Positions 88 through 33,644 of a stretch of 33,646 bases of DNA are shown here, in pieces. The stretch is from a virus (taxonomy: Duplodnaviria > Caudoviricetes). Numbering within the stretch: position 1 is the stretch's first letter; each line of letters opens with the position of its first letter. The position numbers and the translations under genes are program-made. Under the pieces are notes generated by a model that searched no databases, was not told the DNA's origin, and was given only the letters and a program-made list of their open reading frames with translations. The stretch lies in IMG/VR virus record IMGVR_UViG_3300031839_001335, positions 1-33,646 of that record; one strand, 5' to 3'.

Positions 88-258
88 ATGAAAAGGTTTA
101 TTTTGACGAGGAAAATAACACATACAGAGAGAGCAGTGGTTGAGTCAGAATCATGGGATGACGCTAATGCTATGCTTAGAAGTGATGAAACTGACTTTGA
201 AATTCAGGCCGATGATGATATTGAAGATGAAACTATTGAATATATTGGCGACTGCTAA
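88..258 (+). CDS. Small acidic hypothetical protein (cassette-type ORF)
   Basis: ATG at 88 after GGAGAG. The stop TAA is the TAA of the core TGCTAAC (253-259). The ORF track extends it to a TTG at 4. Confidence 0.65.
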   Translation: MKRFILTRKITHTERAVVESESWDDANAMLRSDETDFEIQADDDIEDETIEYIGDC

Positions 259-271
259 CAGCGCAATAAGC
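253..271 (-). other. attI-like recombination site A
   Basis: Minus strand reads GCTTATT-GCGCT-GTTAGCA (7-nt box, 5-nt spacer, GTT core). It has no hairpin partner and matches sites at 2544-2562 and 25723-25741. Confidence 0.55.
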
Positions 272-321
272 GGAACACTATCCACGTAATTTAATATTAA
301 ACTTAATAAAAGGAAAAACAC

Positions 322-720
322 ATGAACATCATAAGTTTTACAGGCAATCTAGGACGTGACGTTGAAGTAAAAGTTACACCGAGCGGCGTATCAGTAGCTA
401 ACTTCAGCGTACCAATAAAATCAGGATACGGTAATAATGAAAAAACATCATGGGTACGTTGCTCAATGATCGGCAAACGTGCTGAGGGCGGATTAATTCA
501 GTATCTTAAAAAAGGCCAGTTAGTCGGCATCAGCGGTGAATTATCAGTGAATACATATACAAATAAAGAAGGCCAAGAAAAAACCAGTGTAGAAGTATTT
601 GTTAAAGAGATTGATTTATTGGGCAGTAAGAATAGCAATCAATCGGCTGATAACTTTTCATCAGCACCAGCGCAGCCTAAAGAGCCGATGGATGCTTTTG
701 GTGCTGATATTCCGTTTTAA
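322..720 (+). CDS. ssb: Single-stranded DNA-binding protein
   Basis: OB-fold motifs GNLGRD, VANFS and KKGQLV.ISGEL, plus the acidic C-terminal DIPF tail. Confidence 0.95.
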   Translation: MNIISFTGNLGRDVEVKVTPSGVSVANFSVPIKSGYGNNEKTSWVRCSMIGKRAEGGLIQYLKKGQLVGISGELSVNTYTNKEGQEKTSVEVFVKEIDLLGSKNSNQSADNFSSAPAQPKEPMDAFGADIPF

Positions 721-1052: not shown

Positions 1053-1222
1053 ACACAACAGCATCAACATTCTTTAGCCTCATGGCTGAGTTCGGAACAG
1101 CACAAATACCGCTTGAGAGCATGTGCGATAAGTATTTCAACCTAAAGTATGGGGCAGCCAAGAGAAAAGCGGCCAAACAATCATTGCCAGCTAATTTTGG
1201 ATGCCCTTATTGGAGCGCCTAA
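1049..1222 (+). CDS. PrtN-like (pyocin activator family) small DNA-binding protein, apparently C-terminally truncated or chimeric
   Basis: Not in the ORF track. Reads MNTTASTFFSLMAEFGTAQIPLESMCDKYFNLKYGAAKRKAAKQSLPANFGCPYWSA with a GGAGG RBS. LMAEFG..IPL...C.KYF resembles the PrtN N-terminus. The stop lies inside the attC core GCCTAAC. Confidence 0.65.
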   Translation: MNTTASTFFSLMAEFGTAQIPLESMCDKYFNLKYGAAKRKAAKQSLPANFGCPYWSA

Positions 1223-1279
1223 CGCCTTAGTTAAAAGGCGGCTGCTTTTTAGCCGTCATTTTTGAACGACTTGTTAGCT
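1217..1279 (-). other. attC site 1 (63 bp)
   Basis: Minus strand: AGCTAAC-AAGTC-GTTCAAAA...TTTTAAC-TAAGGC-GTTAGGC, with an internal CGGCT/AGCCG stem. Confidence 0.88.
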
Positions 1280-1296
1280 GTTGGAGCTTGATTATT

Positions 1297-1548
1297 ATGA
1301 AAATACCAGAAGAATTAGAAGCAATTATTTACGACACAATGAAGCAGATGAGTGACCACAGTAAGGCTCTCTGCGATTTGGTGAACACGCACGGAACTGA
1401 CGAGCAAAAACAAGCATACAAAGAGGCTGTTTACGCTCCTGTGGTTCGGTTTTCTTTGATTCTCGGCAAAGACGCTATTGCACGCCATAAAATCAGGCAC
1501 GAAGAAATAAGCAAGCAGGTAAAAGCCTGCTTACATAGTGACAGCTAA
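1297..1548 (+). CDS. Gene-cassette ORF, hypothetical protein
   Basis: Bounded by GTTAGCTG (1273) and CAGCTAAC (ending 1549), which are perfect complements. GGAG RBS. The stop lies in the core. Confidence 0.8.
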   Translation: MKIPEELEAIIYDTMKQMSDHSKALCDLVNTHGTDEQKQAYKEAVYAPVVRFSLILGKDAIARHKIRHEEISKQVKACLHSDS

Positions 1549-1607
1549 CGTAATAACTAAGGGGTGCGTAGCGAAGCGGAGCATCCCGCTTGAGTGACTT
1601 GTTATGA
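1543..1607 (-). other. attC site 2 (65 bp)
   Basis: Minus strand: TCATAAC-AAGTC-ACTCAAGC-GGGATGC...GCACC-CCTTAGT-TATTAC-GTTAGCT. Confidence 0.9.
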
Positions 1608-1801
1608 GTAATTTTCAATTTAGCAACGTGGTTGTTGTAGATGATGACCAAATAGGCGTGATCGTCAAATCATGGGCAGACGGAAAGCATGATGTTTATG
1701 TGCGTAGTTACAACGGCGTGAGGGAGTACCCAGAAAGCGAGATTAAGCATTTTATTTACAGTAAAACCCTTGATGAAGATGAATACGCTTTTTACTCATA
1801 A
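1604..1801 (+). CDS. Gene-cassette ORF, small protein with an SH3/KOW-like beta pattern
   Basis: Bounded by GTTATGAG (1601) and CTCATAAC (ending 1802). The ATG and the TAA both lie inside the cores. Confidence 0.8.
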   Translation: MSNFQFSNVVVVDDDQIGVIVKSWADGKHDVYVRSYNGVREYPESEIKHFIYSKTLDEDEYAFYS

Positions 1802-1871
1802 CCCCGCTATTTTGCGGCGCACGTAGTGCGTCCGAGTGACCATCGGGAACGACAACAATGCTTTGTTATGT
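1796..1871 (-). other. attC site 3 (76 bp)
   Basis: Plus strand: TCATAAC-CCCGCT-ATTTTG...CAACAAT-GCTTT-GTTATGT, with an internal CGCAC/GTGCG stem. Confidence 0.8.
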
Positions 1872-1889
1872 GCCGACGAGGAGAGAGAA

Positions 1890-2057
1890 ATGGAAAATAT
1901 TGATGGTGACACAATGCAAGATTTTATTAACTGGCTTTCAGATAGAGAGCAGGACATTGCTGATGGTGTTGAAGATTTTGGGGGACTCCGTGCGATATTC
2001 TTCAGCCTATTTGGGCGTAATGCTGGTGAGAAAGTTGAGCCAGACCCGTTCTGGTAG
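1890..2057 (+). CDS. Gene-cassette ORF, small acidic hypothetical protein
   Basis: GAGGAG RBS before ATG 1890. Cassette bounded by GTTATGTG (1865) and CACATAAC (ending 2066). An in-frame GTG at 1836 lies inside the attC. Confidence 0.75.
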   Translation: MENIDGDTMQDFINWLSDREQDIADGVEDFGGLRAIFFSLFGRNAGEKVEPDPFW

Positions 2058-2059
2058 GC

Positions 2060-2137
2060 ACATAACGCCAATGCTTAGGGGCGCGAGGTACGAGCGTCCC
2101 AGTGAGTAAAGCGAACGACTAGAGCTACTTGTTAGCG
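2060..2137 (-). other. attC site 4 (78 bp)
   Basis: Plus strand: ACATAAC-GCCAAT-GCTTAG...CTAGAGC-TACTT-GTTAGCG, with a GGGGCGC/GCGTCCC stem. Confidence 0.85.
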
Positions 2138-2149
2138 CGAGGAAAAGAG

Positions 2150-2335
2150 ATGGAAATATTATGTTGGATTTTAGCCCTTATTTGGGTTTCCGGCTGGATC
2201 AAAGAATTGGCTTGGGTTCATTCCACCATGGAAAGACACGGTATTGAATACCCGGATGACGCAGTGAAGTACGCGATGCCTGTGGTGCTGTTCCTTGCCT
2301 GGCCGTATTTCTACTTTTATGGAAAGACACGCTAA
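2150..2335 (+). CDS. Gene-cassette ORF, small two-TM membrane protein
   Basis: GAGG RBS and two hydrophobic segments. Bounded by GTTAGCG (2131) and CGCTAAC (ending 2336). Confidence 0.8.
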   Translation: MEILCWILALIWVSGWIKELAWVHSTMERHGIEYPDDAVKYAMPVVLFLAWPYFYFYGKTR

Positions 2336-2393
2336 CGCCATAGCTGTGCGGCGTGGAGCGCAGCGGAACGTCCGAACGAGCGACTTGTTAGGC
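2330..2393 (-). other. attC site 5 (64 bp)
   Basis: Plus strand: CGCTAAC-GCCATA-GCTGT...ACGAGC-GACTT-GTTAGGC. Confidence 0.85.
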
Positions 2394-2440
2394 GTAATTG
2401 GAGACTGAAATGAGCAGGCAGAAGGACTTAGCATGCCACA

Positions 2441-2512
2441 TCCTTTAAGAAAAATATTTTCTTAAAGGATAGCATTATATTTCTTAAAGGACAAAAGCAC
2501 TTTCTTAAAGGA
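2441..2512. repeat. Iteron-like 12-bp repeats TTTCTTAAAGGA (3 direct, 1 inverted) inside an essentially non-coding cassette
   Basis: Direct copies at 2458, 2480 and 2501. Inverted copy TCCTTTAAGAAA at 2441-2452. Confidence 0.85.
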
Positions 2513-2543
2513 TGGAGTTTCTTCAGTTGACCTCGGCTTGAGC

Positions 2544-2562
2544 GCCTAACAGCGTATTAACA
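2544..2562 (-). other. attI-like recombination site C
   Basis: Minus strand TGTTAAT-ACGCT-GTTAGGC. It terminates the array and has no hairpin partner. Confidence 0.5.
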
Positions 2563-2591
2563 GGCAAAAAATAACTATACAGTACGCATAT

Positions 2592-3795: not shown

Positions 3796-4636
3796 ACAGT
3801 CGCAACGTGCCGAAAAGCTGATCTGTCGGGTCGTTGTCTGTTTGGATGCGGATGCGCGTTATTGCCGCAGTAATTGAGCTAACTGTAGATGTAAGGAGTA
3901 CCTGTATATTGTCAGTGTCACGGTAAGTGTTGGAAATACTGGTAGCAATTTTTAGGTTACTCCCGGCATAATCCTCAATCGTTAATTTAAGATATGAATA
4001 CGAGCCGCTTGGCGAACTGGCTGCTGCCGCCGAGCCGATTCTTGCCTCTGCCACCTCGGAGCCTGTTGTTGAGTTATTTGACCCACCGACCCATTGCCTA
4101 TGATAGTTTGAGGCCGTGGTGTCTGCATTCATGTATAACACAACGGCATCAAGTGTGCTGGACACGTCTCCACGTACTGCGCCCTCAATAATAATTCGAT
4201 TAAACCCAGACGGAATGTTGTTAAAATCAAAATCTCCAGCAGTCGTGTTATTGATTTCCTCAATTAGCTGCTTGCCGTAATATGGAGCGCGGTAGCTTTC
4301 CCATTTAGTGATTGTGATCGTGTTGCCTGCCGCCTCGTCTACAATGACATCGCCATCCGTACCGCCAATGGTCATCTTACCTGCTGCAATGGCCGTGATC
4401 TTAGCCGAATAGATGTTGTTGGCTGCGTTGCTAAATCCGGTGACGTTGACATAATCATCCGCATCAAACCCGGCCGTTATAAAACCGTTGCCAGAATCGT
4501 TAAATGAGTTGTCGGCGTTGGCGGCCGAAATAGTGGTGCCTGATATGGTGACCGATGTGGATAGCTGGGACAGAATGACTTGATCTGTGTACGCTGGCGC
4601 ACTGGATGCCGTTAATTTAGAAATTGGTGTGGTCAT
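3782..4636 (-). CDS. Virion tail or fibre-associated protein
   Basis: S/T/G/A-rich beta protein. N-terminal ISKLT and C-terminal AAITRIRI...LRLYG patterns are typical of phage tail proteins. Confidence 0.6.
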   Translation of the reverse strand: MTTPISKLTASSAPAYTDQVILSQLSTSVTISGTTISAANADNSFNDSGNGFITAGFDADDYVNVTGFSNAANNIYSAKITAIAAGKMTIGGTDGDVIVDEAAGNTITITKWESYRAPYYGKQLIEEINNTTAGDFDFNNIPSGFNRIIIEGAVRGDVSSTLDAVVLYMNADTTASNYHRQWVGGSNNSTTGSEVAEARIGSAAAASSPSGSYSYLKLTIEDYAGSNLKIATSISNTYRDTDNIQVLLTSTVSSITAAITRIRIQTDNDPTDQLFGTLRLYGEL

Positions 4637-4759
4637 TTGAAAGCTCCGTGAGACCCCGTCTCTTCAGGGCGGGGAGGTAAGAAGTGCTTTTGATCTTTTC
4701 TGTGCATAAATAATACCTTATATATTGACTTTCACATAATTTAATGCATTATATGAAGC

Positions 4760-6525: not shown

Positions 6526-7067
6526 CTGAGTAAACGCTCTTGCAGGCGAATCAACTGCTGTTGCAAGTAGTCAATCTGTTTGGCATTGCCTTCGACTCTG
6601 GATATGACCTTGTGCGGATGGCCGTCTTGATGCTCGTCAATCACCTCGCGTATCTGATCCAGTTCGCCGTCGATCTGACCCTTTTCATACTGCCAATCAG
6701 CGCGGGAAAACCGGGTTGCCTTGATGCCGCGAATGAACTCAGAATTGCGGTCCACCTCTTTGGTCAGGCCCACAAGAGCAGCCTGTGTGCTGGCATCGCC
6801 AAAGTCACTCAACGTCCGCAGATGCGAAGTTGTTTGCGTCTGCAAGTAAAACAAACCGCCGATAAACGAGATGATGACTGAGGCTGCAAGAGACATAGGT
6901 GCCCAGTTGACTCTTGACTGCTCAAGCTGACGTCTCTCGATGCGTTCAAGAACGCTGACAACTTGCCCGACCTCGGTGTCGATGCGAGTAAGGTTGCGGT
7001 CAGTTTCGGCTTGTTGCGTCCGTATATCAGAAATTTGCGATAACATCTCTGAATATGCCTCAGCCAT
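6522..7067 (-). CDS. Coiled-coil protein with one TM segment
   Basis: Heptad-rich with a central hydrophobic stretch (LAASVIISFIGGLFYL). Confidence 0.7.
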   Translation of the reverse strand: MAEAYSEMLSQISDIRTQQAETDRNLTRIDTEVGQVVSVLERIERRQLEQSRVNWAPMSLAASVIISFIGGLFYLQTQTTSHLRTLSDFGDASTQAALVGLTKEVDRNSEFIRGIKATRFSRADWQYEKGQIDGELDQIREVIDEHQDGHPHKVISRVEGNAKQIDYLQQQLIRLQERLLR

Positions 7068-7073
7068 TGTCTT

Positions 7074-7520
7074 TTAAACCTTACTCAATGTCGCAATGCC
7101 TGAAGCATTCCAAGTGATCTGTAAAGTGATTGCGGTCATATCAATCGGGCCACCTAGATCAACGTAAGCCACAGCCGGGTCACCTGCTTGCGTGTCGTTA
7201 TAGATCAGCCCCCAGTAGGCGTCGGTGTCGTTTGAACCATCAGCCGCCCATGATGGGTTAGTGCCTGAGTCAAACGTCCCTGTGCCGGATGTTTGCGACC
7301 AGCAATTTGCCCAAGTGCCAATAGATGTGCCGCCTGCTGTATAAGTGCCAGCCGTGCCAACTTCGGTGTAGTCACCCAAAGCTGGCGTGGCGTCGCTTGC
7401 TGTGGGCGCTGTGGTGTTGTCGAGAACTGCCACTTTAATGTCATCGGTGCCCGCCCATCCTGCAAAGTAATCGCCGAGGGACATTGCCTCGTCAAACCAT
7501 ACGATGTCGCCTTGTGCCAT
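7074..7520 (-). CDS. Conserved phage structural/tail-associated protein
   Basis: DDIKVAVL...EV...GTYTAGG...WNASGI pattern. AGGAG RBS. Confidence 0.7.
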   Translation of the reverse strand: MAQGDIVWFDEAMSLGDYFAGWAGTDDIKVAVLDNTTAPTASDATPALGDYTEVGTAGTYTAGGTSIGTWANCWSQTSGTGTFDSGTNPSWAADGSNDTDAYWGLIYNDTQAGDPAVAYVDLGGPIDMTAITLQITWNASGIATLSKV

Positions 7521-7537
7521 TGTTATTTTCTCCTGAG

Positions 7538-8284
7538 TTAATAGCCGATGGCCATCCAGTGGTAAGTACCGGATATGCCGCGCTGTGGGTAAATGGTGAA
7601 TTGGGAAAGTGATTTGATAATTGCCGGGCAGCCGCCCCAGTTGGATGCGTTGCCTGGAAAGCCTTGTGTGGCCTCATTAGCCACCACACTGAAAAAAGTG
7701 GTCGTGAATGCTTTAGGCAACGTAATATCTGTACCGGTAGAACTTGACGACGCCAATGTGCCGGTCTTACCCCATTGTATAATTAAGCCGCCGGGTAACT
7801 CTTGGTAGCCGTTCGTAGAAAGCGATTGATTAGCGCCGGTAAAATCAGACTCAAGCAATGGCGCGGTTTGACCCTCAAGCGATGTAATACGAGACTCATA
7901 ATCCGCAGACTCGGTTTGCAACGTGTCGATTTCACTCTCTGCCGTGGTTAGTCGCCCATCTATGGATGTGACCGATGTATTCAGGCTTGAAACCGATGTG
8001 GTCAGGCTGGACAGGTCTGAGACGATAAACGGGTCAATGGTGTATCGCACCACGTCATTTGAATCAGTGACCGTAATCTTGATGTCGCCCACTGTTTCGT
8101 TTACATAAATCGGATCAAAGCGCCCTGTTGCATCTGCAACAACGGGTGTAGAATGGGCTGTGGTAAGATCATCGTCTTGATACACGGTAACGGGCGTGGA
8201 AGTGCCTGTTTCGTAGGCGTAGAGCTTGTCTCCTGCCTCATAGGTTTCGCCAATCAGAGGCGGGAAGATTAAAACTGCTGCCAT
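7538..8284 (-). CDS. Short tail fibre (N-terminal attachment domain, coiled coil, gp53-like C-terminal domain)
   Basis: LYAYETGTSTP..VYQD...PVVADATGRF at the N-terminus. NGYQELPGGLIIQWG...WMAIGY at the C-terminus. Confidence 0.85.
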   Translation of the reverse strand: MAAVLIFPPLIGETYEAGDKLYAYETGTSTPVTVYQDDDLTTAHSTPVVADATGRFDPIYVNETVGDIKITVTDSNDVVRYTIDPFIVSDLSSLTTSVSSLNTSVTSIDGRLTTAESEIDTLQTESADYESRITSLEGQTAPLLESDFTGANQSLSTNGYQELPGGLIIQWGKTGTLASSSSTGTDITLPKAFTTTFFSVVANEATQGFPGNASNWGGCPAIIKSLSQFTIYPQRGISGTYHWMAIGY

Positions 8285-12599: not shown

Positions 12600-14976
12600 C
12601 GACCGTGATCCTTGCCGTTGCGTCTATAAAAACACGCTTGACCGGCGCCGATATGGTTAGCCTTGGCGTAAATGATCGGTGCTGTCCAAGCCTGCGCCAA
12701 ATCAATCGGTCGCAATGCTCGCCCTCTTTGCCCAGTGACCGCATGGCCTGAGTGATGTCTGGCTCTCTTGCGCCGCAGCCTAATACGTCCAGCATCACAT
12801 AAGGTTCATCGGTGTAATCTATCTGATTGTTAGACACCTCCAGCAATTCACTGGCATCAAGCCTTGCCATACGCTCTTGGTTTGATCCAGCAATAAAAAC
12901 ACCATCGCCATAAACCAAAGCGCCAATTTCTTCCGTTGAAGATGGGAAACTTGTGTCGCTCACAAGCTGCCATGTCGCGCCGTCATCCTCACTGAAGCCT
13001 ATGGTGTTGTTATAACCAACCACTATCCACATATTGAGGCCAGTGCCAACTTCTGTCAGCCTTTCTGTGCCAAAAGGATTTGATATAGATGCCCAAGTCA
13101 CAGCGTTGTCAGTCGAGCGCAAAATCAAACCATTGTAACCAACAGCCACCCATGTACCATTAAGATGCTGAATCGATTGCACATTGGTTGACCCTGCCAG
13201 TGTTTCCGCAGCGGTCAGAGCAGACCAAGTGATCCCATCATCGGTTGATACTCTAACAGTTCCGGAGTTGCCAACATTTACCCACTTGCCGCCGCCATAA
13301 TAGACCCATGTAAGCGCCTCTGATGTGCCCGTGGTGACTGTTGACCATGAGCCGCCGCCATCTGTGGATCGAATCATGTGCCCGTTTGGGCCGTGCAAAA
13401 GCCAAGTGCCGGAATCGTTGCTCTCGCCACCCACATAGCGGGTTGAGCCAACAACAGAAACCGTCCATGTTAGGCCGTCGTCGTCAGATATACCAACTTT
13501 GTTGCCCTCGCCAGAAATGCACCACTTCTTATACAGCGGATCATAAAACGCATCATAAATGCCAGATGATCCGAAGCCGGGGTCGATCGCTGTCCATGTT
13601 TGACCCTGATCGGTGCTGCGTAGCAGAATTGATGACGTTAAGGACACGCCGCCAGTTACTATAAGAACGCCATTGCCGTATCCACCTTCACGTAGTTGAT
13701 CCGTAGTAGTCAAAGCTACTTGTTCCCAGTTACCTAGCTCAAAGCCGTCAGTAAATGTGTTGTTGCTGTAATAACCGGGGACACCTGTTTCTGCAATCAA
13801 TTCGATCTCATGGACGCGAAAACGCTGGTTTAATTGCGTAATTGGCGGGAATTGCACCTCTGAAATGATTTCGTCCCCGTTCTCGTCGTAGACATCCTGC
13901 TTCTGCTCATACAGTCGCCCACGCCCTGTATCAGCGCATAAAATCTTGTTAAATGCTTGAACGTGAAAAGACGCCCTAGATGTATCTGACTTCTCTGATT
14001 TTCGCTTGTGCCAAACACCCGTGGCCGCATCAAAAACCCAAGTAAACAAGCCAGGAACCGTCAACACATAAAATTCGTGCCCCTCTTCGATATAAGAGGA
14101 CGCAACCGCCCCGTCATAGGCTGCACTGTCATCATGCCGCCATGCACCTTTGGCGATTTCGTACTCGACCGCATGAGTGGATATGCGCTCGGCGTTATAC
14201 CCGCCTTGGCCGCCAATCCTTCGCACAATGCCAGAATCATCCAAAAACACGACTGAATTGTCCAGATTGGCAACCGACCACCTTGCACCTAAGCCTCGAT
14301 TGATTACCGAGCCTTTGTAGGGCGCAACAATCTCTGTTCCGCCGGTTAAAAACCAAGATTCAATGGTGTCATCACCAAATAACAGCAGTCGGTCATGGTC
14401 ACGCCATACCGCTACAAGGTTATCAGGCGCGTTCTCAGCCGTTGCGAAGTCTAAGGCATCGTATGTGGTGCCTTCGTAGATTTCAGACCAGAAAAGCTGC
14501 CCAGATGAGCCTGATTGATTGTTGTTAAAAAAGAAATAACCACCCAAAAAAGCCACTGTGTCGGCGTTTGGAAAATCCGAATCGGTTACAGGCGTTAGCG
14601 TGTCGGATGCCAGCGTCACAATGTAGGTGATCGCCTCCGTGGTGATGACAAGTTGTACCCCGTTGTCAGCCATCGACACACGACCATAGCCGCCAATATT
14701 GCCGATTAGCGTCGCTGCGCCTGTCTTGCGTACCTTGTACAGTTTTAGCCCGCAGACCACCCAAAGCGTCCCGTTGACCGGAACCCAATGCATCCCACGA
14801 ATCAAAGCCGTGTCGATCTCGCTGAATAACAGCAGGCCGGGGCATCCGATCAGCGCAACAGGGCTTCTAGCCCCATCTGGTGCCTTCTCAACGTACATGT
14901 TGACCAGCGTTTCAGCAGTGAGCGCAACAGATCGCCCCTTGGCGTTCTTGGTAGCGGTGGGTATACGTTGGCGCAT
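12592..14976 (-). CDS. P22 gp10-like tail hub / DNA stabilisation protein with an inserted BNR (Asp-box) propeller
   Basis: N.Y.E...L..CPGL, VSMADNG.Q, ALDFATAE..PD, RIST.A.E, Y..EGHEFY.L and WRRLG motifs. Repeated S.D.G.TW Asp-boxes at about aa 405-720. Confidence 0.88.
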   Translation of the reverse strand: MRQRIPTATKNAKGRSVALTAETLVNMYVEKAPDGARSPVALIGCPGLLLFSEIDTALIRGMHWVPVNGTLWVVCGLKLYKVRKTGAATLIGNIGGYGRVSMADNGVQLVITTEAITYIVTLASDTLTPVTDSDFPNADTVAFLGGYFFFNNNQSGSSGQLFWSEIYEGTTYDALDFATAENAPDNLVAVWRDHDRLLLFGDDTIESWFLTGGTEIVAPYKGSVINRGLGARWSVANLDNSVVFLDDSGIVRRIGGQGGYNAERISTHAVEYEIAKGAWRHDDSAAYDGAVASSYIEEGHEFYVLTVPGLFTWVFDAATGVWHKRKSEKSDTSRASFHVQAFNKILCADTGRGRLYEQKQDVYDENGDEIISEVQFPPITQLNQRFRVHEIELIAETGVPGYYSNNTFTDGFELGNWEQVALTTTDQLREGGYGNGVLIVTGGVSLTSSILLRSTDQGQTWTAIDPGFGSSGIYDAFYDPLYKKWCISGEGNKVGISDDDGLTWTVSVVGSTRYVGGESNDSGTWLLHGPNGHMIRSTDGGGSWSTVTTGTSEALTWVYYGGGKWVNVGNSGTVRVSTDDGITWSALTAAETLAGSTNVQSIQHLNGTWVAVGYNGLILRSTDNAVTWASISNPFGTERLTEVGTGLNMWIVVGYNNTIGFSEDDGATWQLVSDTSFPSSTEEIGALVYGDGVFIAGSNQERMARLDASELLEVSNNQIDYTDEPYVMLDVLGCGAREPDITQAMRSLGKEGEHCDRLIWRRLGQHRSFTPRLTISAPVKRVFIDATARITVDG

Positions 14977-15338
14977 TAATAAGACTCTGCGTAGATGTTT
15001 AGATCGAAGTCGCGTTTGCCGTACATTGAAAGCAAGTGGTCAAAGGCATCTTCAGACTTCGCGATGGTGTCCATTTCCAGACTTATGTCGTACTGACGCG
15101 ACATATAAACCGCCAGATTCAACACTATCGGCAGAATATGGTCGTCAGGGTATGGCAACGTGTCGGATAACGCCAAGTCTGCGTGACTCAGCGGAATACC
15201 TTTAATCTGCCAATACTTGAGCAATTGATTAAGCAGGCGCAGAGCGTCTTGCGCTTCAGCAGCGTCTGGCTCTTCCTGCGTTTGCAAGATGCCCAACTCC
15301 AACATGGCGTCTTTAATTAGTCGAAGTGCTGTTGTCAC
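14976..15338 (-). CDS. P22 gp4-like head-tail adaptor
   Basis: LI..A..ELG......EP.A.E..DAL..LN.L...W and NLAV motifs, plus synteny. Confidence 0.82.
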   Translation of the reverse strand: MTTALRLIKDAMLELGILQTQEEPDAAEAQDALRLLNQLLKYWQIKGIPLSHADLALSDTLPYPDDHILPIVLNLAVYMSRQYDISLEMDTIAKSEDAFDHLLSMYGKRDFDLNIYAESY

Positions 15339-15489
15339 TGGTTTTTCTCGCCTTGATTACCTTCAGTTTGGCCGTTTGGTGCTGCTCGTACCATTCCGGC
15401 TCGACTTCGGTGTGTTTGCCTTTGGTAAAAACCACGCCCCGATAACTGACGTGGTTTCCTCTGTAGTTTCCTGCGTATTTGACTTTCAT
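15313..15489 (-). CDS. Small hypothetical protein downstream of the capsid gene
   Basis: Likely start MKVKYAG. Fills the gap between the capsid and gp4-like genes. Confidence 0.55.
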   Translation of the reverse strand: MKVKYAGNYRGNHVSYRGVVFTKGKHTEVEPEWYEQHQTAKLKVIKARKTSDNSTSTN

Positions 15490-15499
15490 AGGGATAAGA

Positions 15500-15521
15500 A
15501 GGTGGGGCCGAAACCCCACCT
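15500..15521 (-). terminator. Hairpin after the capsid gene (weak terminator or mRNA stabiliser)
   Basis: AGGTGGGG-CCGAAA-CCCCACCT with an 8-bp perfect stem. Confidence 0.55.
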
Positions 15522-15528
15522 ATTTATC

Positions 15529-16608
15529 TTAAGCGTCAGCCGCTGCGCCGAAGTATCCTGTAACAACGCCGTGATCTTTCAGATCGTCAGTGTCGCTAGA
15601 GCCTGAGCCAAAGGTGATCTTCGCAATGCCTCGGATTTCTTCGATGGCGCAACCTACTTTGTCGCCATAGTCGAATTCTTCAGTCTTGGAAGTGGTCATC
15701 TTAGCCCATCCGATGCCAACAGCCTGTGCGCCGCACAAGTAAGCCGGTGAAACAGCCGCAGACGTATTACCAACGCCGCCCAGAGAGGCAATATCAGGGA
15801 TTTCCTTGATAATCACGCCGTCATAAACCAGATCGCCTCCGGTAAACAGCGGGTTATTGCTACCACGGCTCCATGCTTCGCGATTAGCCTGTGCGATAAC
15901 GCTATCAGCTTTTAGATCACGGAAACAGCGAGAGTCAGTGTAAAGCACATACCAACGCTCATCTTCCGTAGTGCGGATCGGACGTATTTTCGGACTGGCC
16001 GTTTGCGCGATACGCTTCATCAACTGCACTTCAGCCGCGCCCAAGGTCATGGCTGCGGTCACTGTTGCTAAATCAGCAGAGTGATCCGTATAGCCGCCGT
16101 TCCCCAAAGCGTCACCAAACAACACGCGATCGGCGTTATCCACCAGCCAGATGTCTTTGTTGGCTTCTGAGACAGAGCCATAAGCCGTGCCGTTAATCAT
16201 GCCCAAAGCCGTGATGATGTCATCGCGGGTTTGTTCCATGATCCAATCTTTCAGCACTTCTTTGGCTGCGTTACGCAGAGACAATGCGGAAAACTGCTCA
16301 TCAACTTCAGCCACGCGCACAGCGTTGCGGATTTTATCTACGGTCAGCTTAAAGCTGCGTGAATCCATCGCCTCTTCATTGCCTTCCAGCGTAGAAGAGC
16401 CAGTGACGCCAGCGCCACTCAGACGATTAACTAAAGCGTAAGTGACGGAATCGCCTTTTTTCTTAGTCAGGTCTTTCTTAACCTGGATGATGTTGTTTGG
16501 GCTGGTGCCCATTTCGCGCTTAAAGCGGTTTGATTCGATATATTCCTTGAAAAACAAAGAATCCCATTGTTGGACTGTTAAGCCCGTTGCTACTGATGTA
16601 TCTGCCAT
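15529..16608 (-). CDS. Major capsid protein (N4-gp56/DUF4043-like family)
   Basis: DLTKKKGD.V...L...L.G.GVTG...LEGNEE, NPLFTG....YDGV and L.GAQA motifs. Follows the scaffold gene. Confidence 0.9.
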   Translation of the reverse strand: MADTSVATGLTVQQWDSLFFKEYIESNRFKREMGTSPNNIIQVKKDLTKKKGDSVTYALVNRLSGAGVTGSSTLEGNEEAMDSRSFKLTVDKIRNAVRVAEVDEQFSALSLRNAAKEVLKDWIMEQTRDDIITALGMINGTAYGSVSEANKDIWLVDNADRVLFGDALGNGGYTDHSADLATVTAAMTLGAAEVQLMKRIAQTASPKIRPIRTTEDERWYVLYTDSRCFRDLKADSVIAQANREAWSRGSNNPLFTGGDLVYDGVIIKEIPDIASLGGVGNTSAAVSPAYLCGAQAVGIGWAKMTTSKTEEFDYGDKVGCAIEEIRGIAKITFGSGSSDTDDLKDHGVVTGYFGAAADA

Positions 16609-16617
16609 ATCTATTTC

Positions 16618-17442
16618 CTATCGATTAAAGGTTGTTTCAAGCGGGTCTGCTGGCATCACAACTTCGTTGTTCCGTCCAGCGGCTCGTGTGTCGGTTAAAG
16701 ATGGAGAGATGTCAGGAACAGGCTTTGGCTCAGGCGTTGCCGGTTTTGCCAGCATGTCGTTTCTTCGGCCAAGCTCTACAGCTTGAAGGTAAGGCGACAT
16801 TTTGCTGATTCTTTCCAACTCTGCCGGAGTCTTTGCGAGTGCGTAGATCACCTCTGCCCCGTGATCCAGATTCATGGCGACTTCAGCCATTGCCTCAGTG
16901 ATCGGAACATCGGCCAGCACCACCGAATCAAAGTCAGGCGCTACCTTGCGTCCACGGTTGATAAAATCATCCCGCTTGGCCATAGCCTCCTGCTGCAACC
17001 GATCACGTTCCCACTCTTGTTTCAGCGAGGATTTCAAGCCCTCTGCTTGCTGATTCATTTGTGAGCTCATGTATTCGGCTACCGCTTGCTGATACTTGGC
17101 TTCGTCGTATTCAAACTTGTCCAAAGTAGGGAACTCAGCTTGCGATTCAGGCTTTGGTTTTGACGCCTCTGCCATCTGCTGCCGGAGTTGCTCTAACTCG
17201 CGTTGCTGTTGCTCGATCTGACGATCTCGCTCCTGCCGTTTTTCTCTCTCGTTTAACAGTGCCACTATCGGCACTTTGTCAGTCTTTTCAGGCTCGTCTT
17301 GCGACGTTGGCTCGCTTTCCTGATCAGGTTCTTTGTGTGGCTCTGTTGCCGTTTCCTGCGCATCTACTTCAGTTAATTGCTGCTCAGGCACTTCCTGCTC
17401 AGGGGTTTCAACCGTTTCAACAAACTCATCTAGTTCTGACAT
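16618..17442 (-). CDS. Capsid scaffolding protein
   Basis: Acidic disordered N-terminus, VP..AL..ER.KRQ, coiled coil, Y.LAK.P.E..RI. GAGG RBS supports ATG 17442. Confidence 0.85.
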   Translation of the reverse strand: MSELDEFVETVETPEQEVPEQQLTEVDAQETATEPHKEPDQESEPTSQDEPEKTDKVPIVALLNEREKRQERDRQIEQQQRELEQLRQQMAEASKPKPESQAEFPTLDKFEYDEAKYQQAVAEYMSSQMNQQAEGLKSSLKQEWERDRLQQEAMAKRDDFINRGRKVAPDFDSVVLADVPITEAMAEVAMNLDHGAEVIYALAKTPAELERISKMSPYLQAVELGRRNDMLAKPATPEPKPVPDISPSLTDTRAAGRNNEVVMPADPLETTFNR

Positions 17443-17561
17443 ATCGACCTCGCTGCGTCGTCCAGTAATCGACCGCCCTGCGTCGTCCAGTGCCTTATCG
17501 CGGCAAACGTGCAACAAAAAACCCACCGGAGCGGATTTCGTGCTGATCTGTGATCTTATGC

Positions 17562-18542
17562 TTAAATAGGGCCTGCAAATTGAGTCAAAACATTGACGGC
17601 CGTGGCTGCTGCCGGTGAGCCGGTTTTATCCAGCACATAGTCACCTGCCTGATATGCAGTATCCTCGATTGGCTGCTGCGTTACTCTTGCGGCCTGCTCT
17701 AGCGCATCATCCTCACCGATTGCCAACCCATAGCCCAATCGAGCAAGACCCGATAAGCCCTGCATGGGCACATCAAACAAGTCAAGGACGTTGCCTAGCT
17801 GTTGCATGACTTCAGCAAATTGCTGCTTTCTCGCTTCTCGCTTCATGGCAAAGGCCTCACCTCTGCGTCTGCGCTCTTGGTTCTGCTCTTGTTGAGCAAT
17901 AGCTGCCTGAGCCTCTTCAGGAGCCATAGAAGCGCCCACTAAACCGGCTGTTACGGCTGCTGGTGCGGCAGATGCTAGTAGATTTGGGCTGCCAATCTTT
18001 TCGGGGTCGAATTCGGCGTTGACGCTGCGAATTTTTGAAGGGTCAAGCACCACCGTTGCCGGAGGTCTTTGCCTTACAGCATCTGCACCTTCATCGACTA
18101 TAAAACTGTCAAAACCCAATTCAGGGACTTCTTCTCGTAAAAATTCAGCTAATGAGTTATTTTCAACCCAGTCAGGCAACCCTTGTTCTGTGATCTCGGA
18201 ACCGTTATCAAAAACACCCTTGTATTTTTCTCGATAGATACGCAAATGGTCGGGGTTACGAGTATCAAATGTTTTCTGACGATTTAGATAAACAGGGATT
18301 ACACCGGGCGCATCTTTTGTAACCCCGTAGAAAGATGACGATGATGCACTTGAGTCTGTGAACTTACTAGCATAATCAGCGTCTGCCGTGAAAAAGGAAT
18401 CTTCTTTAAATGACGGGAAATCGATATTAGGAGAACCGTGATAAAAAACCTCGCTAGTGTCAAACCCCATGTCACGCGCACGCTTCATACGAGCAGCCGT
18501 TGACATATCCAGCGCTTTCTTTAAGCCAGCCAGCTTACCCAT
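17562..18542 (-). CDS. Protein with a putative ADP-ribosyltransferase-like (polyvalent-protein ART) domain
   Basis: RA..MGFD...YHGS...F...FFT.D..YAS.F...VIPVYL...DP.KIRSVNA.FDP motifs, then a helical A/Q-rich C-terminus. Confidence 0.6.
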   Translation of the reverse strand: MGKLAGLKKALDMSTAARMKRARDMGFDTSEVFYHGSPNIDFPSFKEDSFFTADADYASKFTDSSASSSSFYGVTKDAPGVIPVYLNRQKTFDTRNPDHLRIYREKYKGVFDNGSEITEQGLPDWVENNSLAEFLREEVPELGFDSFIVDEGADAVRQRPPATVVLDPSKIRSVNAEFDPEKIGSPNLLASAAPAAVTAGLVGASMAPEEAQAAIAQQEQNQERRRRGEAFAMKREARKQQFAEVMQQLGNVLDLFDVPMQGLSGLARLGYGLAIGEDDALEQAARVTQQPIEDTAYQAGDYVLDKTGSPAAATAVNVLTQFAGPI

Positions 18543-20376
18543 CAACCTGTTCCAGCATGTCACTTAAGCCAGACTCAACCGCATCATTCTCTAGCTCTTG
18601 AGCCTCAGTGTCGGCCATGTCTTTAGCAGCTTTGGCCAATTTTGCGCGAATATCGGCTACTTTTGTGGCTTTCTCAATTTGGTAAGCCTCTTCCTCACGC
18701 TGTTGAGCCTTTTGCATCTCTACCTGCTTCATTTCAGCCTCTTCCGGGCTTAATTCACCGCCGGAAATGACTTCCATGAGCCGTTTTTTGTTCGGAACAT
18801 GAGGCATCAACTCAAGCCAGATTTGTAAAGGCACCTGAGTACCTGAAGCACTCACCGCATTAGCAAATGCCTCGAATGTCTCGGTCTGCAATGTGGTGAC
18901 GTCCGGCACCATGTCTAGGATGATGTCGATGTCCAACTCAGCCACATGGTTTTCGATGTGGTGAACCTCGTTTGCGATGGGGTTCATCGGATCAAACGGC
19001 TGGCCCTGCTCTTTGAGCATCTCGCCAAACGTAACCGGCTTATTCAGCGCGATAAATTTCAGACTGTTTTCGTCATCGGTAACGCGAATCCACTTCTCTT
19101 CACGCCAGAATTGCTTGATACGCGCCCAAATCTGCCGATAGATGCGCTTTTCCCAGTAACGTGCGCCATCCAGAAGCGGTGCAAGGCCACGCACTGCGGC
19201 CTGCTGGCTCATTTGCATGGCGCGGCCAGATAGCGACTTCTCAGAGCCACCTGAAAGCTGCTCTACGCCACCAAAGCTGTTAAGCGATCCCTTGGCATCC
19301 TGCAATAGCTGAAACTGACCGGACGCTAGGTCGCCAGTATGCTCGATGCTGAATTCTTTGCCGGGGTTTTTCTCAACGTAGCCATCAGGCTTGTTGACCT
19401 CGGCTCTGGCTCTGTTGATGCTATCGACTGCGCCCTTGTCCGCTATGACCTGTCGAGTAGATAGCAAGTGCAGTGACTTAGATCGTCGCTTATTGATCTC
19501 ATCAACAATGGTGATAAGTTGCCGAACATAACCGTATGGGTTGTTGTCCCGATCCATGTAGGCGCGTTGCACCTCAATCGGGTTGGCCGGCTCACCATCC
19601 TCATCCAGATAGTCAGACGGATGCGGCTCGACCACATAACCCTGTCCGGTAAACATGCAGTGCAGCCACTGACCACCAGACTGATAATACATCTCGATGA
19701 TCTTGACGCGATGGCGATTGCGGTCAAAAAACAGGTTCTTTGGCTTGTCGTCGTAGGTATCTGTGCCGCCTGCCTCTTCAATGCCAGCGGTCAGGATGGT
19801 CGGGTCAACATTCGGCCACTTGGCCTGTGCTGCCGTGTCCTCCATCCAAATCGCCTGCCCCATAAACATGGCGTCTGCGCCGTCTTTGCGTGACGAATGC
19901 GAGTCGATGAAAAAGCGATCCCAAGGGATGCGACGAGGCATAATCTCAACACCCCGCTTACCCTTCTTGATCTCCACAATAGAAGCCATCGTGCCTTCGA
20001 CCAAGTAGTCATCAATGCATGTTGTCTTAACTTGATCTAAATTAGCGTTGTCGGCCACATAACGCAAGGCATCGGTCACGGATTCTGCCGCATCTTCATC
20101 GTCTGGATTTCTAGGGAATCCCTTTATATCAGTTCGGGAGGTGATCTCGTAACCGATGATCGATTGAACAAACTCTTTAAGCTCAGGCGATTGCGTTATC
20201 GGTTGCTTGCGGTTCTTAAGCGCAGTTTCTTCCTCAGAAGTCCATTGCTTCAAGTCCACATAGTCTCGATCACGCTCTGCCTTTGTGCGGTTGTCTTGAG
20301 TCGCCAGCGCGGTATCAATATACCAACGTTTCACATCCTCAAGCTGTTTTCCAGGAGTCATATTCGTCATCTTCAT
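18535..20376 (-). CDS. Portal protein (P22-like; start may be 20361)
   Basis: DRDY.D.KQW, L..R.QP, PYG.VR.L...DEINKRRSK and SGRA motifs. Follows terL. Confidence 0.92.
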   Translation of the reverse strand: MKMTNMTPGKQLEDVKRWYIDTALATQDNRTKAERDRDYVDLKQWTSEEETALKNRKQPITQSPELKEFVQSIIGYEITSRTDIKGFPRNPDDEDAAESVTDALRYVADNANLDQVKTTCIDDYLVEGTMASIVEIKKGKRGVEIMPRRIPWDRFFIDSHSSRKDGADAMFMGQAIWMEDTAAQAKWPNVDPTILTAGIEEAGGTDTYDDKPKNLFFDRNRHRVKIIEMYYQSGGQWLHCMFTGQGYVVEPHPSDYLDEDGEPANPIEVQRAYMDRDNNPYGYVRQLITIVDEINKRRSKSLHLLSTRQVIADKGAVDSINRARAEVNKPDGYVEKNPGKEFSIEHTGDLASGQFQLLQDAKGSLNSFGGVEQLSGGSEKSLSGRAMQMSQQAAVRGLAPLLDGARYWEKRIYRQIWARIKQFWREEKWIRVTDDENSLKFIALNKPVTFGEMLKEQGQPFDPMNPIANEVHHIENHVAELDIDIILDMVPDVTTLQTETFEAFANAVSASGTQVPLQIWLELMPHVPNKKRLMEVISGGELSPEEAEMKQVEMQKAQQREEEAYQIEKATKVADIRAKLAKAAKDMADTEAQELENDAVESGLSDMLEQVDG

Positions 20377-21886
20377 TAAAAACCTTATCCCACCTATCGC
20401 GTGGTTTTGTGTCGGCCTTGCTTACAGGCGCAGCACCAATAATCTCGTCAAGCGCCATGCCAATCAGCGCACATACATCTACAGCGTCGTCGTAGCGTCC
20501 TGTAGGAAATGAGCAGAGTTGATTGATGAGCCGGTCGCCCCATTCGGTATAGGGGATATAAACCTTGCCCATTGCAGCGCGTCCTCGGAAGGATTGCGCC
20601 ATTGCCGCCTTGTCTGCGGTGCGAGCAACCCATTCATAGCTTGAATAAAGCCGCCTTTCATGGGCGCGTTTCATCATCAAGCCTTCGATGGCTTTCTGAA
20701 TCACGCCCTTTTCCCCGAAGATGGTCATAGGCTTATGCTCTGCGGCAAGATCAAGCTGTCGATCTACCCAAACATCAGGCGTTTCTTGCCCAAACCACCA
20801 ATCCACTGCGTACAAGTCATCAGCAGGGCTGACGCCCCACACACCAAACTCGGTATAATCGCCACCGCCTTCTGTCACCGCGTAGTCAGATGTTATGTAC
20901 TTATGTACGTCTGGCAAATCCTGCAAGTGATACCGCTTAAACCACTCTCGTTTAAAGAAATCGCCCTCTGTAGCAGACGGTATTTGCTGGTATAAAGAAT
21001 TCCAATCCCTTAAACCTGTTAATGTCATGGTTTTTTTGGTTTGCTCCCACCATTCAGGACTAAACCAATCAACCCAAAGCCATTCGCCCTCTTTGCGGCC
21101 TAATAAGTCGTTTTCTCTAGCCTCTGCCGGCAAGCAAACAACAAACCATTCCTTGCCATCCCTTGCCTTAACAATACCGCTTTCGCCGTTCCAATCTTCT
21201 GGCAAGATACGCCCTGCCAGATCATCTTCATGCCATCGGGTTAAAATGATGATTTCAGGACTATTGGGCTTTAGCCGTGTTTGAAAGTCTGTTTTGTACC
21301 ATTCCCACGTGGAGTTTCTAACCGTTTCAGAATCAGCATCCTTTCTACCCTTAACGGGGTCATCAATAATGCCTAAATCACCCCTTCTGCCTGTAATACC
21401 AGCACCAACACCAACAGACTTGTAATTGTTGCCTTTGGCTGTCTCCCATTCACTCTTAGATTGCGAGTCTTGAGATAGCTCAGTATCAGGAAAAACGCTT
21501 TGGTATTCAGGCGTTCTTACTAAGTTTCTAACCTTGCGGCCAAAGGTGTTTGATAAGTCTTGGCCATAACTAGCCGATATAACGCTTTTACCTACTACGC
21601 CTTCACTATCCCACCTCCCCATCACATAAGCAGGGAAATTAACCGTAGCATAAGTAGACTTTGCCGAACCCGGCGGCATAAATACCATCAAGTTCTTAAG
21701 CTCGCCGCTTACTATCTTGTCCAGATAGCCGTTTAATACTTTATGGTGCTTTGCTGGGGGCTGGTCAGGTGATATAGAAAGGCTAAAGCCTGTCATTGAG
21801 CTTCTAGCCTGCCTACGCTTTAAAAGCTCCCTAGCCGCGTCCTGACGCGATAGCTTCAAGCTCTGCATCTGATAAGCCTGTTGCAT
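20339..21886 (-). CDS. terL: Terminase large subunit
   Basis: MPPGSAKS Walker A, IIDDP.K Walker B, TRWHEDDLAG, and RNase H-like D...FP.GRYDDAVD. Confidence 0.95.
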   Translation of the reverse strand: MQQAYQMQSLKLSRQDAARELLKRRQARSSMTGFSLSISPDQPPAKHHKVLNGYLDKIVSGELKNLMVFMPPGSAKSTYATVNFPAYVMGRWDSEGVVGKSVISASYGQDLSNTFGRKVRNLVRTPEYQSVFPDTELSQDSQSKSEWETAKGNNYKSVGVGAGITGRRGDLGIIDDPVKGRKDADSETVRNSTWEWYKTDFQTRLKPNSPEIIILTRWHEDDLAGRILPEDWNGESGIVKARDGKEWFVVCLPAEARENDLLGRKEGEWLWVDWFSPEWWEQTKKTMTLTGLRDWNSLYQQIPSATEGDFFKREWFKRYHLQDLPDVHKYITSDYAVTEGGGDYTEFGVWGVSPADDLYAVDWWFGQETPDVWVDRQLDLAAEHKPMTIFGEKGVIQKAIEGLMMKRAHERRLYSSYEWVARTADKAAMAQSFRGRAAMGKVYIPYTEWGDRLINQLCSFPTGRYDDAVDVCALIGMALDEIIGAAPVSKADTKPRDRWDKVFNEDDEYDSWKTA

Positions 21887-22573: not shown

Positions 22574-22574
22574 T

Positions 22575-22596: not shown

Positions 22597-22635
22597 GGGT
22601 TATCTTTAGGGATAGAATCCCTTATATTAAAAATA

Positions 22636-25650: not shown

Positions 25651-25722
25651 TTCTTCTTATCAGTCGGTCTTTGCCTACTTCCTTTTGACATTTTCTTATC
25701 CTTTTTTTTAGTTGTTAGTTCC

Positions 25723-25741
25723 GCTTAACGCACTGTTATAT
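25723..25741 (+). other. attI-like recombination site B
   Basis: GCTTAAC-GCACT-GTTATAT, preceded by GTTCC as in site A. Confidence 0.55.
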
Positions 25742-26797
25742 AATTTTCACAAGCCATTGGGAATAAATCTCGGTTGCTATTTGTGCAGTCATTACAGGGG
25801 GTACACTCATTCCAATTAAATAAACAGGTTTATTAGTGCAAAAATTATAATCCATTGGGTAACTTCCTGCCTTTTTACATTCATCATCAAATAAAGTTCT
25901 TTCAATTTCATAGTCATAAGGCAAGCCACTTGCTCTAATTGTTGGCACTACTTTGTCAGGGTGTAATTTAATTTCATTAAAGTAGCTTCCTTTAGGGTGC
26001 ACACTGCTAAAGCTATTTCCAGCCTCACAAAGCAACCAATATTCTCTAATCATTGGAGAAAGTCCAATTGCATTTTCATTGCCTTCTGTTTGTCTTATGT
26101 ATTTGTATGGTATTTCAGGTTCTTTAAAATCGATTGTAATTTCAGGAGCAACGGTAAATAAATCCATCTGTTTTAAAAACGGTCTCGCTAAATCTTTTCT
26201 AAATGCAATAAAAAAAACACGCTCTCTTTTTTGTGGCACTCCCATTTTTGAGCCATCAACTAAAAAATGTTGTACGTAATATCCTGCTAAATCAAATTCC
26301 TTGTAAATTTTTCTTACATACTCTTTTGCATCTCCCTGCAATAACCCTTTTACATTTTCAGCAACAACAACTTTAGGCTGCAATTCTTTTGCAAGGTCTA
26401 TAAAGTCAAAGAATAAATTATCTAAAACCTGTACAGCTTGTCCTTCTCTAAATTTCTTTTCTTTTCCCCAGTCCTTTTCTCTATTTCCAGCCGTTGAAAA
26501 ACTGCTACAAGGGGGCGAACCGTCTAAAATATCAAGGTTGTAAAGTTCTTCTGGTAAATCCTTTCTTAATTTAAAAGTTTGGATAGGCTCTAAATAAGCA
26601 TATTTAGGGTTGTGGTTAGCTTTGTATGCTTCCATCATTTTAGGATCAATCTCATTACACCCTAATACATCAAAGCCAGCTAATTTATACCCCATTGTCG
26701 AACCACCACCGCAAGCAAAACAACTAAAAACCGTTCCTTTATCTTTTGTGAAGTTTGCATCTTTTAAAGTCCATTCATATTGGTATCTATGTTCCAT
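25736..26797 (-). CDS. C5 DNA cytosine methyltransferase (gene cassette)
   Basis: Motifs I (FACGGG), IV (GSPPC), VI (ENVKG), VIII (PQKRERVF) and X (GMSVPP). No cognate endonuclease nearby. Confidence 0.95.
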   Translation of the reverse strand: MEHRYQYEWTLKDANFTKDKGTVFSCFACGGGSTMGYKLAGFDVLGCNEIDPKMMEAYKANHNPKYAYLEPIQTFKLRKDLPEELYNLDILDGSPPCSSFSTAGNREKDWGKEKKFREGQAVQVLDNLFFDFIDLAKELQPKVVVAENVKGLLQGDAKEYVRKIYKEFDLAGYYVQHFLVDGSKMGVPQKRERVFFIAFRKDLARPFLKQMDLFTVAPEITIDFKEPEIPYKYIRQTEGNENAIGLSPMIREYWLLCEAGNSFSSVHPKGSYFNEIKLHPDKVVPTIRASGLPYDYEIERTLFDDECKKAGSYPMDYNFCTNKPVYLIGMSVPPVMTAQIATEIYSQWLVKII

Positions 26798-26823: not shown

Positions 26824-26957
26824 ATATAACAAAAGCATCAAGCGGACTAAAACCGCTATCGGCTTTTTTAGTTTGTTGCATGTCTAAAGTTAATTGGTCT
26901 TTCAAAGTATCTCCTGTTATTTGTGGCGGTTTTAACCGCTTATGCTAAACGTTATTC
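26824..26957 (+). other. attC site 6 (134 bp, long type)
   Basis: ATATAAC-AAAAG-CATCAAGC-GGACTAAAACCGC...GCGGTTTTAACC-GCTTATG-CTAAAC-GTTATTC. Confidence 0.9.
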
Positions 26958-26967
26958 ACATTAACCA

Positions 26968-32977: not shown

Positions 32978-33220
32978 TTGAGCTACGCAAGCTGGCTGAC
33001 CCTGCCGCGAATAATGATGCACGAAATGCCGGACGAATGGCAGGACAAAATGGCTGCTTTGCTTGAGGAGTGGGACGAAACCTGGAACAGCGACGACATG
33101 CCAAGCCCAAGCGTAACAGCTAAACAAAACGGCAAATTTACACTGTGGCCGAGCTGGTTGTTGAACTACCGCCACCCAGACAGGCAGGAAATTGAGAAGC
33201 GCAGAATTGGCGGCGCATAA
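32978..33220 (+). CDS. Cassette-type ORF, probably 5'-truncated
   Basis: TTG start without an RBS. The frame extends upstream only to a TGA. The stop lies in the core GCATAAC. Confidence 0.6.
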   Translation: MSYASWLTLPRIMMHEMPDEWQDKMAALLEEWDETWNSDDMPSPSVTAKQNGKFTLWPSWLLNYRHPDRQEIEKRRIGGA

Positions 33221-33344
33221 CGCCAAGCGTAACCCGACGCCGGGCAGAAACACGGGAGACTTGAAGCAATGAAAGAGCAAAAAGACCACACAAAACCAGA
33301 AGCCGCAGAGGATCAGGCGGTCGGCGTTGACGCGCTTGTTAGTT
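33215..33344 (-). other. attC site 7 (130 bp, long type)
   Basis: Minus strand: AACTAAC-AAGCG-CGTCAACG-CCGACCGCC...GGCGTCG-GGTTACG-CTTGGC-GTTATGC. Confidence 0.85.
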
Positions 33345-33589
33345 TGCGGATCACGGACGATACCAAACTGGGGCGCAAAGCCATCATGTTTGGCGATGGC
33401 GAAGACGGCTATTTCATGCAACAACACCAGATTTTTGCGGACGACCACGACACTGGAGTAACCATGCTTGTCACCGGCAATCTTGGCAAGGACAACACCA
33501 CTCGGACTTTTGAATTCGGGGGGCAGGATTTCGAGAAAATCCAGGATGCCTTTCGAGCTGCTGGGCACGATGTTGTTTCGTCAAACTAA
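33269..33589 (+). CDS. Gene-cassette ORF whose first ~25 codons lie inside attC7
   Basis: GGGAG RBS and ATG within the attC loop. Cores GTTAGTTTG (33338) and CAAACTAAC (ending 33590) are complementary. Confidence 0.78.
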   Translation: MKEQKDHTKPEAAEDQAVGVDALVSLRITDDTKLGRKAIMFGDGEDGYFMQQHQIFADDHDTGVTMLVTGNLGKDNTTRTFEFGGQDFEKIQDAFRAAGHDVVSSN

Positions 33590-33644
33590 CGCCCACATAT
33601 AAGCGGTGGCGATTTTAGCCATCCGATTGATTTGCTTGTTAGCT
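33584..33644 (-). other. attC site 8 (61 bp)
   Basis: Plus strand: AACTAAC...CGGTGGC-GATTTTA-GCCATCCG-ATTGATT-TGCTT-GTTAGCT. Confidence 0.78.

Follow-up and report, generated by a model that had tools for sequence, protein, structure and literature searches.

Integrons are known as banks of anti-phage genes. Their integrase, IntI, joins the folded bottom strand of an attC site to a double-stranded attI site at G/TT. In the portions of the literature available to us, the attI1 architecture is described as comprising L and R boxes and two direct repeats (PMC4792948, PMC3146285), recombination between two attI sites is documented for IntI1 (PMC4792948), and attI sites are reported to be specific to their own IntI (PMC2095811). 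Nearby literature also covers marine attI diversity and archaeal attI.

Bacterial CALINs are located far from intI, and half of them occur in genomes that encode IntI; their origin has been ascribed to insertion at secondary sites, to rearrangement or to loss of the integrase, and for most integrons a search for attI was not possible (Cury et al. 2016, PMC4889954). CALINs are likewise described in phages, and in the Shewanella prophage M16-3 an integron and a CALIN are each preceded by a host attI (Qi et al. 2023, PMC9892861). Unlike the record described here, in which no intI was found, the cryptic prophage M16-3 has an intI of its own, and the accessible part of that source mentions neither three to seven shortened attI copies in integrase-less phages, nor inverted docks, nor attI cassette exchange between related phages (PMC9892861). 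The attG sites share with the sites described here an IntI that acts away from the integron on double-stranded targets; attG has a GWT consensus only, whereas the phage sites have a conserved, host-homologous L box and are reused (10.1101/2022.09.11.507474). In the parts of the literature searched, with subscription journals and supplements outside the scope, multiple shortened attI sites in integrase-less phages and many attI platforms per chromosome are undescribed.

The stretch of DNA analysed here (hereafter ‘the window’) is the whole viral record IMGVR_UViG_3300031839_001335, 33,646 bases in length, which is linear and 81% complete according to CheckV; a circular reading of it was dropped for these reasons. 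It encodes podovirus-type head genes, a terminase, primase, helicase, RecT, SSB, NinG, holin, repressor and an excisionase-like protein, and the sequencing runs that contain it are mostly marine. Searches with RecT and NinG returned few close relatives, no GenBank phage had a match that covers site A (see below), and the nearest capsid proteins, at most 60% identical, point to no host. A preliminary description had reported three attI-like docking sites (docks) in the window, and all three strings were recovered. The sites, with the neighbouring genes that matter here, are:

253..276, minus strand: site A, an attI simple site (GTTCC, L box GCTTATT, 5-bp spacer, core), predicted crossover G259/T258
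277..302, minus strand: block upstream of site A, colinear with the host attI platform in an alignment with the bacterial genomes G013 and G014, the interval between two direct repeats being lost
322..720, plus strand: single-strand DNA binding protein gene (ssb), the fixed neighbour of site A
2544..2567, minus strand: site C, a degenerate member, predicted crossover G2550/T2549
25718..25741, plus strand: site B, an attI simple site with a perfect inverse core (GCTTAAC) and a 5-bp spacer, predicted crossover G25735/T25736
31826..32917, plus strand: RecT-like annealing protein, which bears on the homologous-recombination alternative weighed below

Sites A, B and C adjoin ssb, a small ORF ahead of ninG, and the holin gene, respectively. 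With at most one mismatch, the 14-letter motif TTAWYRCRCTGTTA matches the window exactly three times, at A, B and C (0.15 expected; three reached in 0 of 100 shuffles), an enrichment that is circular because the motif was derived from the same sites. A 16-position consensus, built mostly from A, B and their relatives, is matched by A and B without mismatch, and both have the simple-site architecture of an inverse core and a GTTRRRY core at fixed spacing. Site C departs at four of 16 positions and keeps 12, and is not the equal of A and B for which it had been taken. Not one of 2903 GTTA sites of unrelated loci comes within four mismatches of this consensus. Folding found no hairpin partner arm for A, B or C, as had been noted.

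The sites thus share with chromosomal attI of attI1 architecture a double-stranded simple site with no hairpin, an inverse core 5–6 bp before GTTRRRY and a position at the head of an array (PMC4792948, PMC3146285). They differ in being multi-copy, in lacking an adjacent intI, in being trimmed to about 20–45 bp and in lying opposite to gene expression, with no promoter-like match at A; two direct repeats lie upstream in the bacterial copies and one in site A. The 5-bp spacer, previously taken to distinguish attI from the 6-bp attC right arm, fails as a criterion: copies adjacent to intI in G013, G014 and the contig L304 have 6 bp, and spacer length therefore cannot separate attI from attC. It is 5 bp in the window sites and 5 or 6 bp across the attI-like family. 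Of the features of a complete integron, neither an intI beside attI nor a Pc followed by sense cassettes was found in the window. The earlier statement that the phage keeps these sites without intI or Pc can be retained insofar as the 81%-complete record has no tyrosine recombinase (PF00589) match and positions 200–400, the one stretch scanned, have no promoter-like match near site A; ‘without intI’ cannot be extended to the whole genome.

Eight attC sites were recognized in the window by two finders combined, seven of minus and one of plus polarity, the polarity being read from the extra L'' base and the 5/6 spacers. The finders are our own heuristics, the second trained on 44 sites of these loci, with at most 0.03 false calls per 33.6 kb and misses likely. 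These sites and the associated cassettes are:

88..258, plus strand: first cassette gene behind A, 56 aa from the ATG at 88, without an NCBIfam match; antisense to attC polarity, stop codon within the core
1217..2393, minus strand: array C, with attC at 1217–1279, 1543–1607, 1796–1871, 2060–2137 and 2330–2393 and four small plus-strand genes antisense to them
2394..2549, minus strand: first cassette of array C, without an intact gene, with a palindrome and repeated 12-mers
25736..26797, minus strand: cytosine methyltransferase gene (TIGR00675, over cut-off), the sole cassette of array B; antisense, stop codon within the core
26824..26957, plus strand: attC of the methyltransferase cassette, whose bottom strand folds in attC form (z -2.75)
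33215..33344, minus strand: attC from the attC finders, probably belonging to array A across the contig ends
33269..33589, plus strand: cassette gene, 106 aa, antisense, starting within the preceding attC
33584..33644, minus strand: terminal attC of the contig, with 82% identity to the one that follows the site-A homologue in the relative L001

Taking a CALIN as at least two attC sites with no nearby intI, array C (five attC sites) and the contig-end pair are CALINs; array B has one attC. Two attC sites of array C were tested for folding and folded no better than shuffles (z -0.87 and -0.06). All three docks had been described as first in their arrays. For B and C, this is seen directly, and R'' of the first attC in each array complements the core that heads it. 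Site A points toward the contig start, and we infer that it heads the attC sites at 33215 and 33584; because the record is linear and 81% complete, this link is taken from the gene order of L001, in which a near-identical attC, a different 242-aa gene and the site A homologue follow one another in this order. The own attC of the 88..258 cassette was not recognizable in the window. Positions 1–87 are likewise not recognizable as attC, and the sequencing runs X5–X7 have there an attC arm, GTTAGCAG, complementary to the core of site A.

In the window, cassette genes run against attC polarity, and the core supplies the TAA stop codon of the genes behind A and B. The same arrangement, antisense and stopping in the core, was found behind 14 of 17 phage or phage-like copies of the motif that stand at the start of arrays (heads), whereas behind 13 of 14 bacterial copies the gene is in sense. 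The methyltransferase at B is plausibly anti-restriction cargo.

Exchange of cassettes was compared among 49 heads with enough flank, a pair being counted at 75% identity or more over 40 upstream bases. Downstream, 17 of the 21 flank-sharing pairs, which are non-independent, diverge, with a mean identity of 1.0 over GTTA that falls to about 0.3 within a few bases; three of the other four represent a repeated coding match. The flank of site A leads into other first cassettes in L303, L325 and L305, and that of site B precedes another cassette in G005 and in run X12 (other letters after 25740). In two pairs, one cassette stands behind unrelated heads, and the cassette 1213–1550 recurs at 98% identity, up to AAC, as the second cassette of another array in L315. 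Contigs from runs X5 and X7 continue the cassette behind A past 259 into other sequence (attC-like in X7), the methyltransferase cassette in run X6 starts at 25735 with different letters ahead, and in runs X11 and X12 the right flank of locus B starts at 26951. In independent runs, then, neighbours switch at 259, 1550, 25735–25740 and 26951 (as seen in contigs only), and for A and B the cassette changes at G/TT. Site C is known from one identical record only, a holin search over 58 loci having revealed no allele variation; in run X6, the holin end is preceded by other sequence and not by site C, and pieces from X6 and X7 end at 2550, the site C crossover.

No empty dock was found on comparing 77 head-following with 132 attC-following 50-mers, the one match being a cassette in two positions. 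Two candidates (G001:6766 and G008:20105) were rejected since both have cassettes with a decayed attC arm, as was the joint 25738 -> 26939 in X6, whose shorter side spans 29 letters and whose two sides are separated by unknown letters. At locus B, both of two relatives lack head and cassette alike, so that the whole platform comes and goes. We also set aside a head-plus-cassette circle that would excise at the motif-opening GTT and land at attG: it predicts a restorable native site, and locus B of G008, with about 45 extra bases, does not fit.

A bacterial home of the motif was found in a marine gammaproteobacterial family, whose three genomes contain six (G013), three (G014) and one exact copies, with none for a reversed control; these are the only three of 401 genomes of the order with an exact match. 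Each has one integron integrase above the TIGR02249 cut-off. In G013 and G014, one motif copy sits immediately upstream of intI and faces away from the gene, an arrangement also seen in the metagenome contig L304/L334; the distance is about 100–170 bp in these two genomes and the contig. L304 and L334 represent one integron, in which the motif adjoins an IntI fragment, 74% identical. In the host platform, about 110 bp long, a 10-bp direct repeat occurs twice and two hexamers form a promoter-like pair (0.7 expected by chance). The match of site A to this platform covers the simple site and one direct repeat; B retains the 20-bp site alone. Judged by sequence, the phage sites are homologous to a chromosomal attI beside an integron integrase gene.

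In G537 and G468, the site upstream of intI is a related form with a 5-bp spacer, further copies of which head distant arrays. The exact 5-bp form was found beside intI in none of the bacterial genomes scanned. Two attC sites of the window resemble attC sites of G014 (86% and 78% identity); positions 13647–33646 have no extended DNA similarity to five candidate genomes. The GTDB scan that led to this family yielded 10 matches against about nine by a rough chance estimate, of which seven had no nearby attC and are read as chance, and two, on contigs titled Pseudomonadales bacterium, head sense cassette arrays. A class-wide search with two mismatches hit 30 of 401 genomes, about the rate of the reversed control, with attC at only three of the 30 loci. 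The intI region of G012, read directly, contains no motif copy.

A longer pattern found 22 loci in viral contigs and 43 in metagenomes; merged with the GTDB hits and with duplicates removed, these amount to 61 unique copies. An attC of the same polarity lies within 1.3 kb downstream of 29 copies and upstream of one, which bears out the expected enrichment at the starts of arrays. Nineteen copies are inside long ORFs and are read as mostly chance; among the other 42, 28 have attC downstream. The 52.8-kb phage G001, 100% complete and without a PF00589 match, has seven heads with zero or one mismatch, and all six of its arrays start with a head; heads with 5-bp and with 6-bp spacers coexist even there. 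The motif is lineage-bound, since only one of 16 arrays in a sample picked by attC pattern has it at the cassette start. Arrays without a head or with a divergent head are also present in G003 and G008.

The docks, then, are homologous to attI beside intI, stand at array heads, change neighbours at the core and are followed by antisense genes that stop on the core TAA. We consider it probable that A, B and the worn C derive from the attI of a bacterial integron, copied in shortened form to three phage loci against the direction of phage transcription, and that host IntI likely inserts and excises attC cassettes there at G/TT during infection. A phage would have acquired attI from a host of the G013/G014 family or a relative, and most of the platform, i.e. 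the promoter-like hexamers and one or both direct repeats, would then have been lost, the 20-bp simple site being retained because it still docks cassettes. Host IntI would act in trans on these docks in infected cells. The preliminary description had put forward IntI1 and IntIA beside a candidate host IntI for recombination assays; the cognate IntI is the appropriate enzyme, attI sites being integrase-specific (PMC2095811). Since cassette genes are antisense to their attC, those that enter an inverted dock would have the orientation of the phage operon; phage promoters would then transcribe them, and no Pc is needed. Several docks would give cassettes entry to different transcription units, beside ssb, beside ninG and at the holin end. 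Possible clues to how docks multiply are a flank-plus-head duplication in G003, the head of site B in another context in G005 and the attI-by-attI recombination documented for IntI1 (PMC4792948).

Among the alternatives, the one that deserves most attention, though we hold it to be unlikely, is that the sites are attI by descent, no longer integrase substrates, and serve as short homology arms for RecT-type swapping of head-to-attC modules between phages. The window encodes a RecT-like protein, a crossover within the shared 20 bp would also yield divergence after GTTA, the head of site B with about 25 bp of flank occurs in other gene surroundings in G005, and both the joint absence of head and cassette at locus B in two of two relatives and the lack of an observed empty dock agree with such swapping. 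It leaves unexplained, however, where cassettes that start at the core come from, and how one and the same cassette can open an array in one genome and lie inside an array in another, with AAC as the point of the switch; moreover, the conserved letters are the L box and the end of the spacer, fixed 5–6 bp from GTT. Less probable still is service of the docks by a tyrosine recombinase of the phage itself, whose gene may lie in the missing fifth of the genome. The 55-kb phage-like contig L315 has a gene for a 214-aa tyrosine recombinase consisting of the catalytic domain only (4030–4674), which starts nine bases past a head whose upstream flank recurs in L310, and the window, itself incomplete, encodes an excisionase-like protein and a repressor. 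Yet none of four complete head-bearing phage records (G001, G003, G005 and G006) has a PF00589 match, the integron integrase model gives the L315 protein 25 bits, against a cut-off of 265, and the bacterial home of the motif is beside a true IntI.

That the sites are eroded attC right arms, left after clipping of array ends, is very improbable, even though GCTTA is common as an L' sequence, the 6-bp forms share attC right-arm geometry and an imperfect inverted repeat lies upstream of some heads (G003, L307). The reading as attI, for which such erosion had been named as a refutation, held: none of 44 attC right arms comes within four mismatches of the consensus, and none of the 61 copies has a left arm or is an attC right arm. 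The seven G001 copies, moreover, differ by zero or one mismatch while the attC arms of the same genome vary, and in bacteria the motif is the intI-adjacent site. A remote descent of this attI family from an attC may nonetheless lie behind the resemblance. Entry of cassettes at chance GWT (attG) sites, with the shared flank being incidental, is the least credible proposal: IntI is described, in the available part of the source, as inserting cassettes at GWT sites genome-wide (10.1101/2022.09.11.507474), which could fit site C, but A and B match host attI over 16 positions, and this match recurs in relatives.

If attI copies served by host IntI are indeed what these docks are, they would explain how integrase-less phage arrays gain members, which attC alone does not, and phages would be active users of integrons. 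They would also supply a named enzyme and natural minimal attI substrates of about 20, 45 and 110 bp with 5- and 6-bp spacers for probing the requirements of an attI, and a dock could be a marker for host prediction, attI sites being integrase-specific. Compared with the CALINs in the accessible part of PMC4889954, the distant bacterial arrays described here bear full copies of their genome's attI platform (six in G013, three in G014); as such genomes combine a single intI with many attI platforms, some CALINs may still be active as docks. A bolder extension strikes us as possible but doubtful: phages might run an inverted, multi-site integron on stolen host attI, with a dock of about 20 bp spreading in the genome, the host integrase working in trans and the inversion splitting two gene pools, because host-type cassettes, which are often anti-phage, would not be expressed in a phage dock, nor would phage-type cassettes behind a host Pc.

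Several minor observations concern the bacterial platforms. One intI with several attI platforms elsewhere, mostly followed by sense cassettes, was seen in G013, G014 and G012 (L341–L350) and in G537, G468 and G692 (L438, L452, L454, L458–L460), and in G012–G014 most platform copies share nearly one left boundary. In L345 (G014), the first cassette behind the intI-adjacent attI has a 75-aa antisense ORF that stops in the core, possibly a phage cassette caught by the host.

Others concern the phage arrays. A second head within an array, behind an attC and a short unit, is present in G003 (39509 and 39965, with the upstream flank duplicated), G007 and L174, and these second heads also make a 12-bp hairpin with their L box. 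In L043 (5498–5575), an array before ssb closes with a divergent head, and 30 bases away lie an L box and spacer resembling those of site C, in opposite orientation and without GTT. The gene behind one head of G001 (6766–7950; L262) is repeated inverted across an intergenic region, with attC arms bounding both copies. In the window, the genes past the last attC of arrays C (1049–1222, excisionase-like) and A (32978–33220, the C-terminal part of phrog_3527) also stop on a TAAC core; they may be old cassettes or native genes struck at the stop codon. The gene-less first cassette of array C contains, at 2439–2512, a 31-bp palindrome, a possible terminator, operator or origin, and two further copies of its 12-bp arm, at the convergence of the plus and minus operons.
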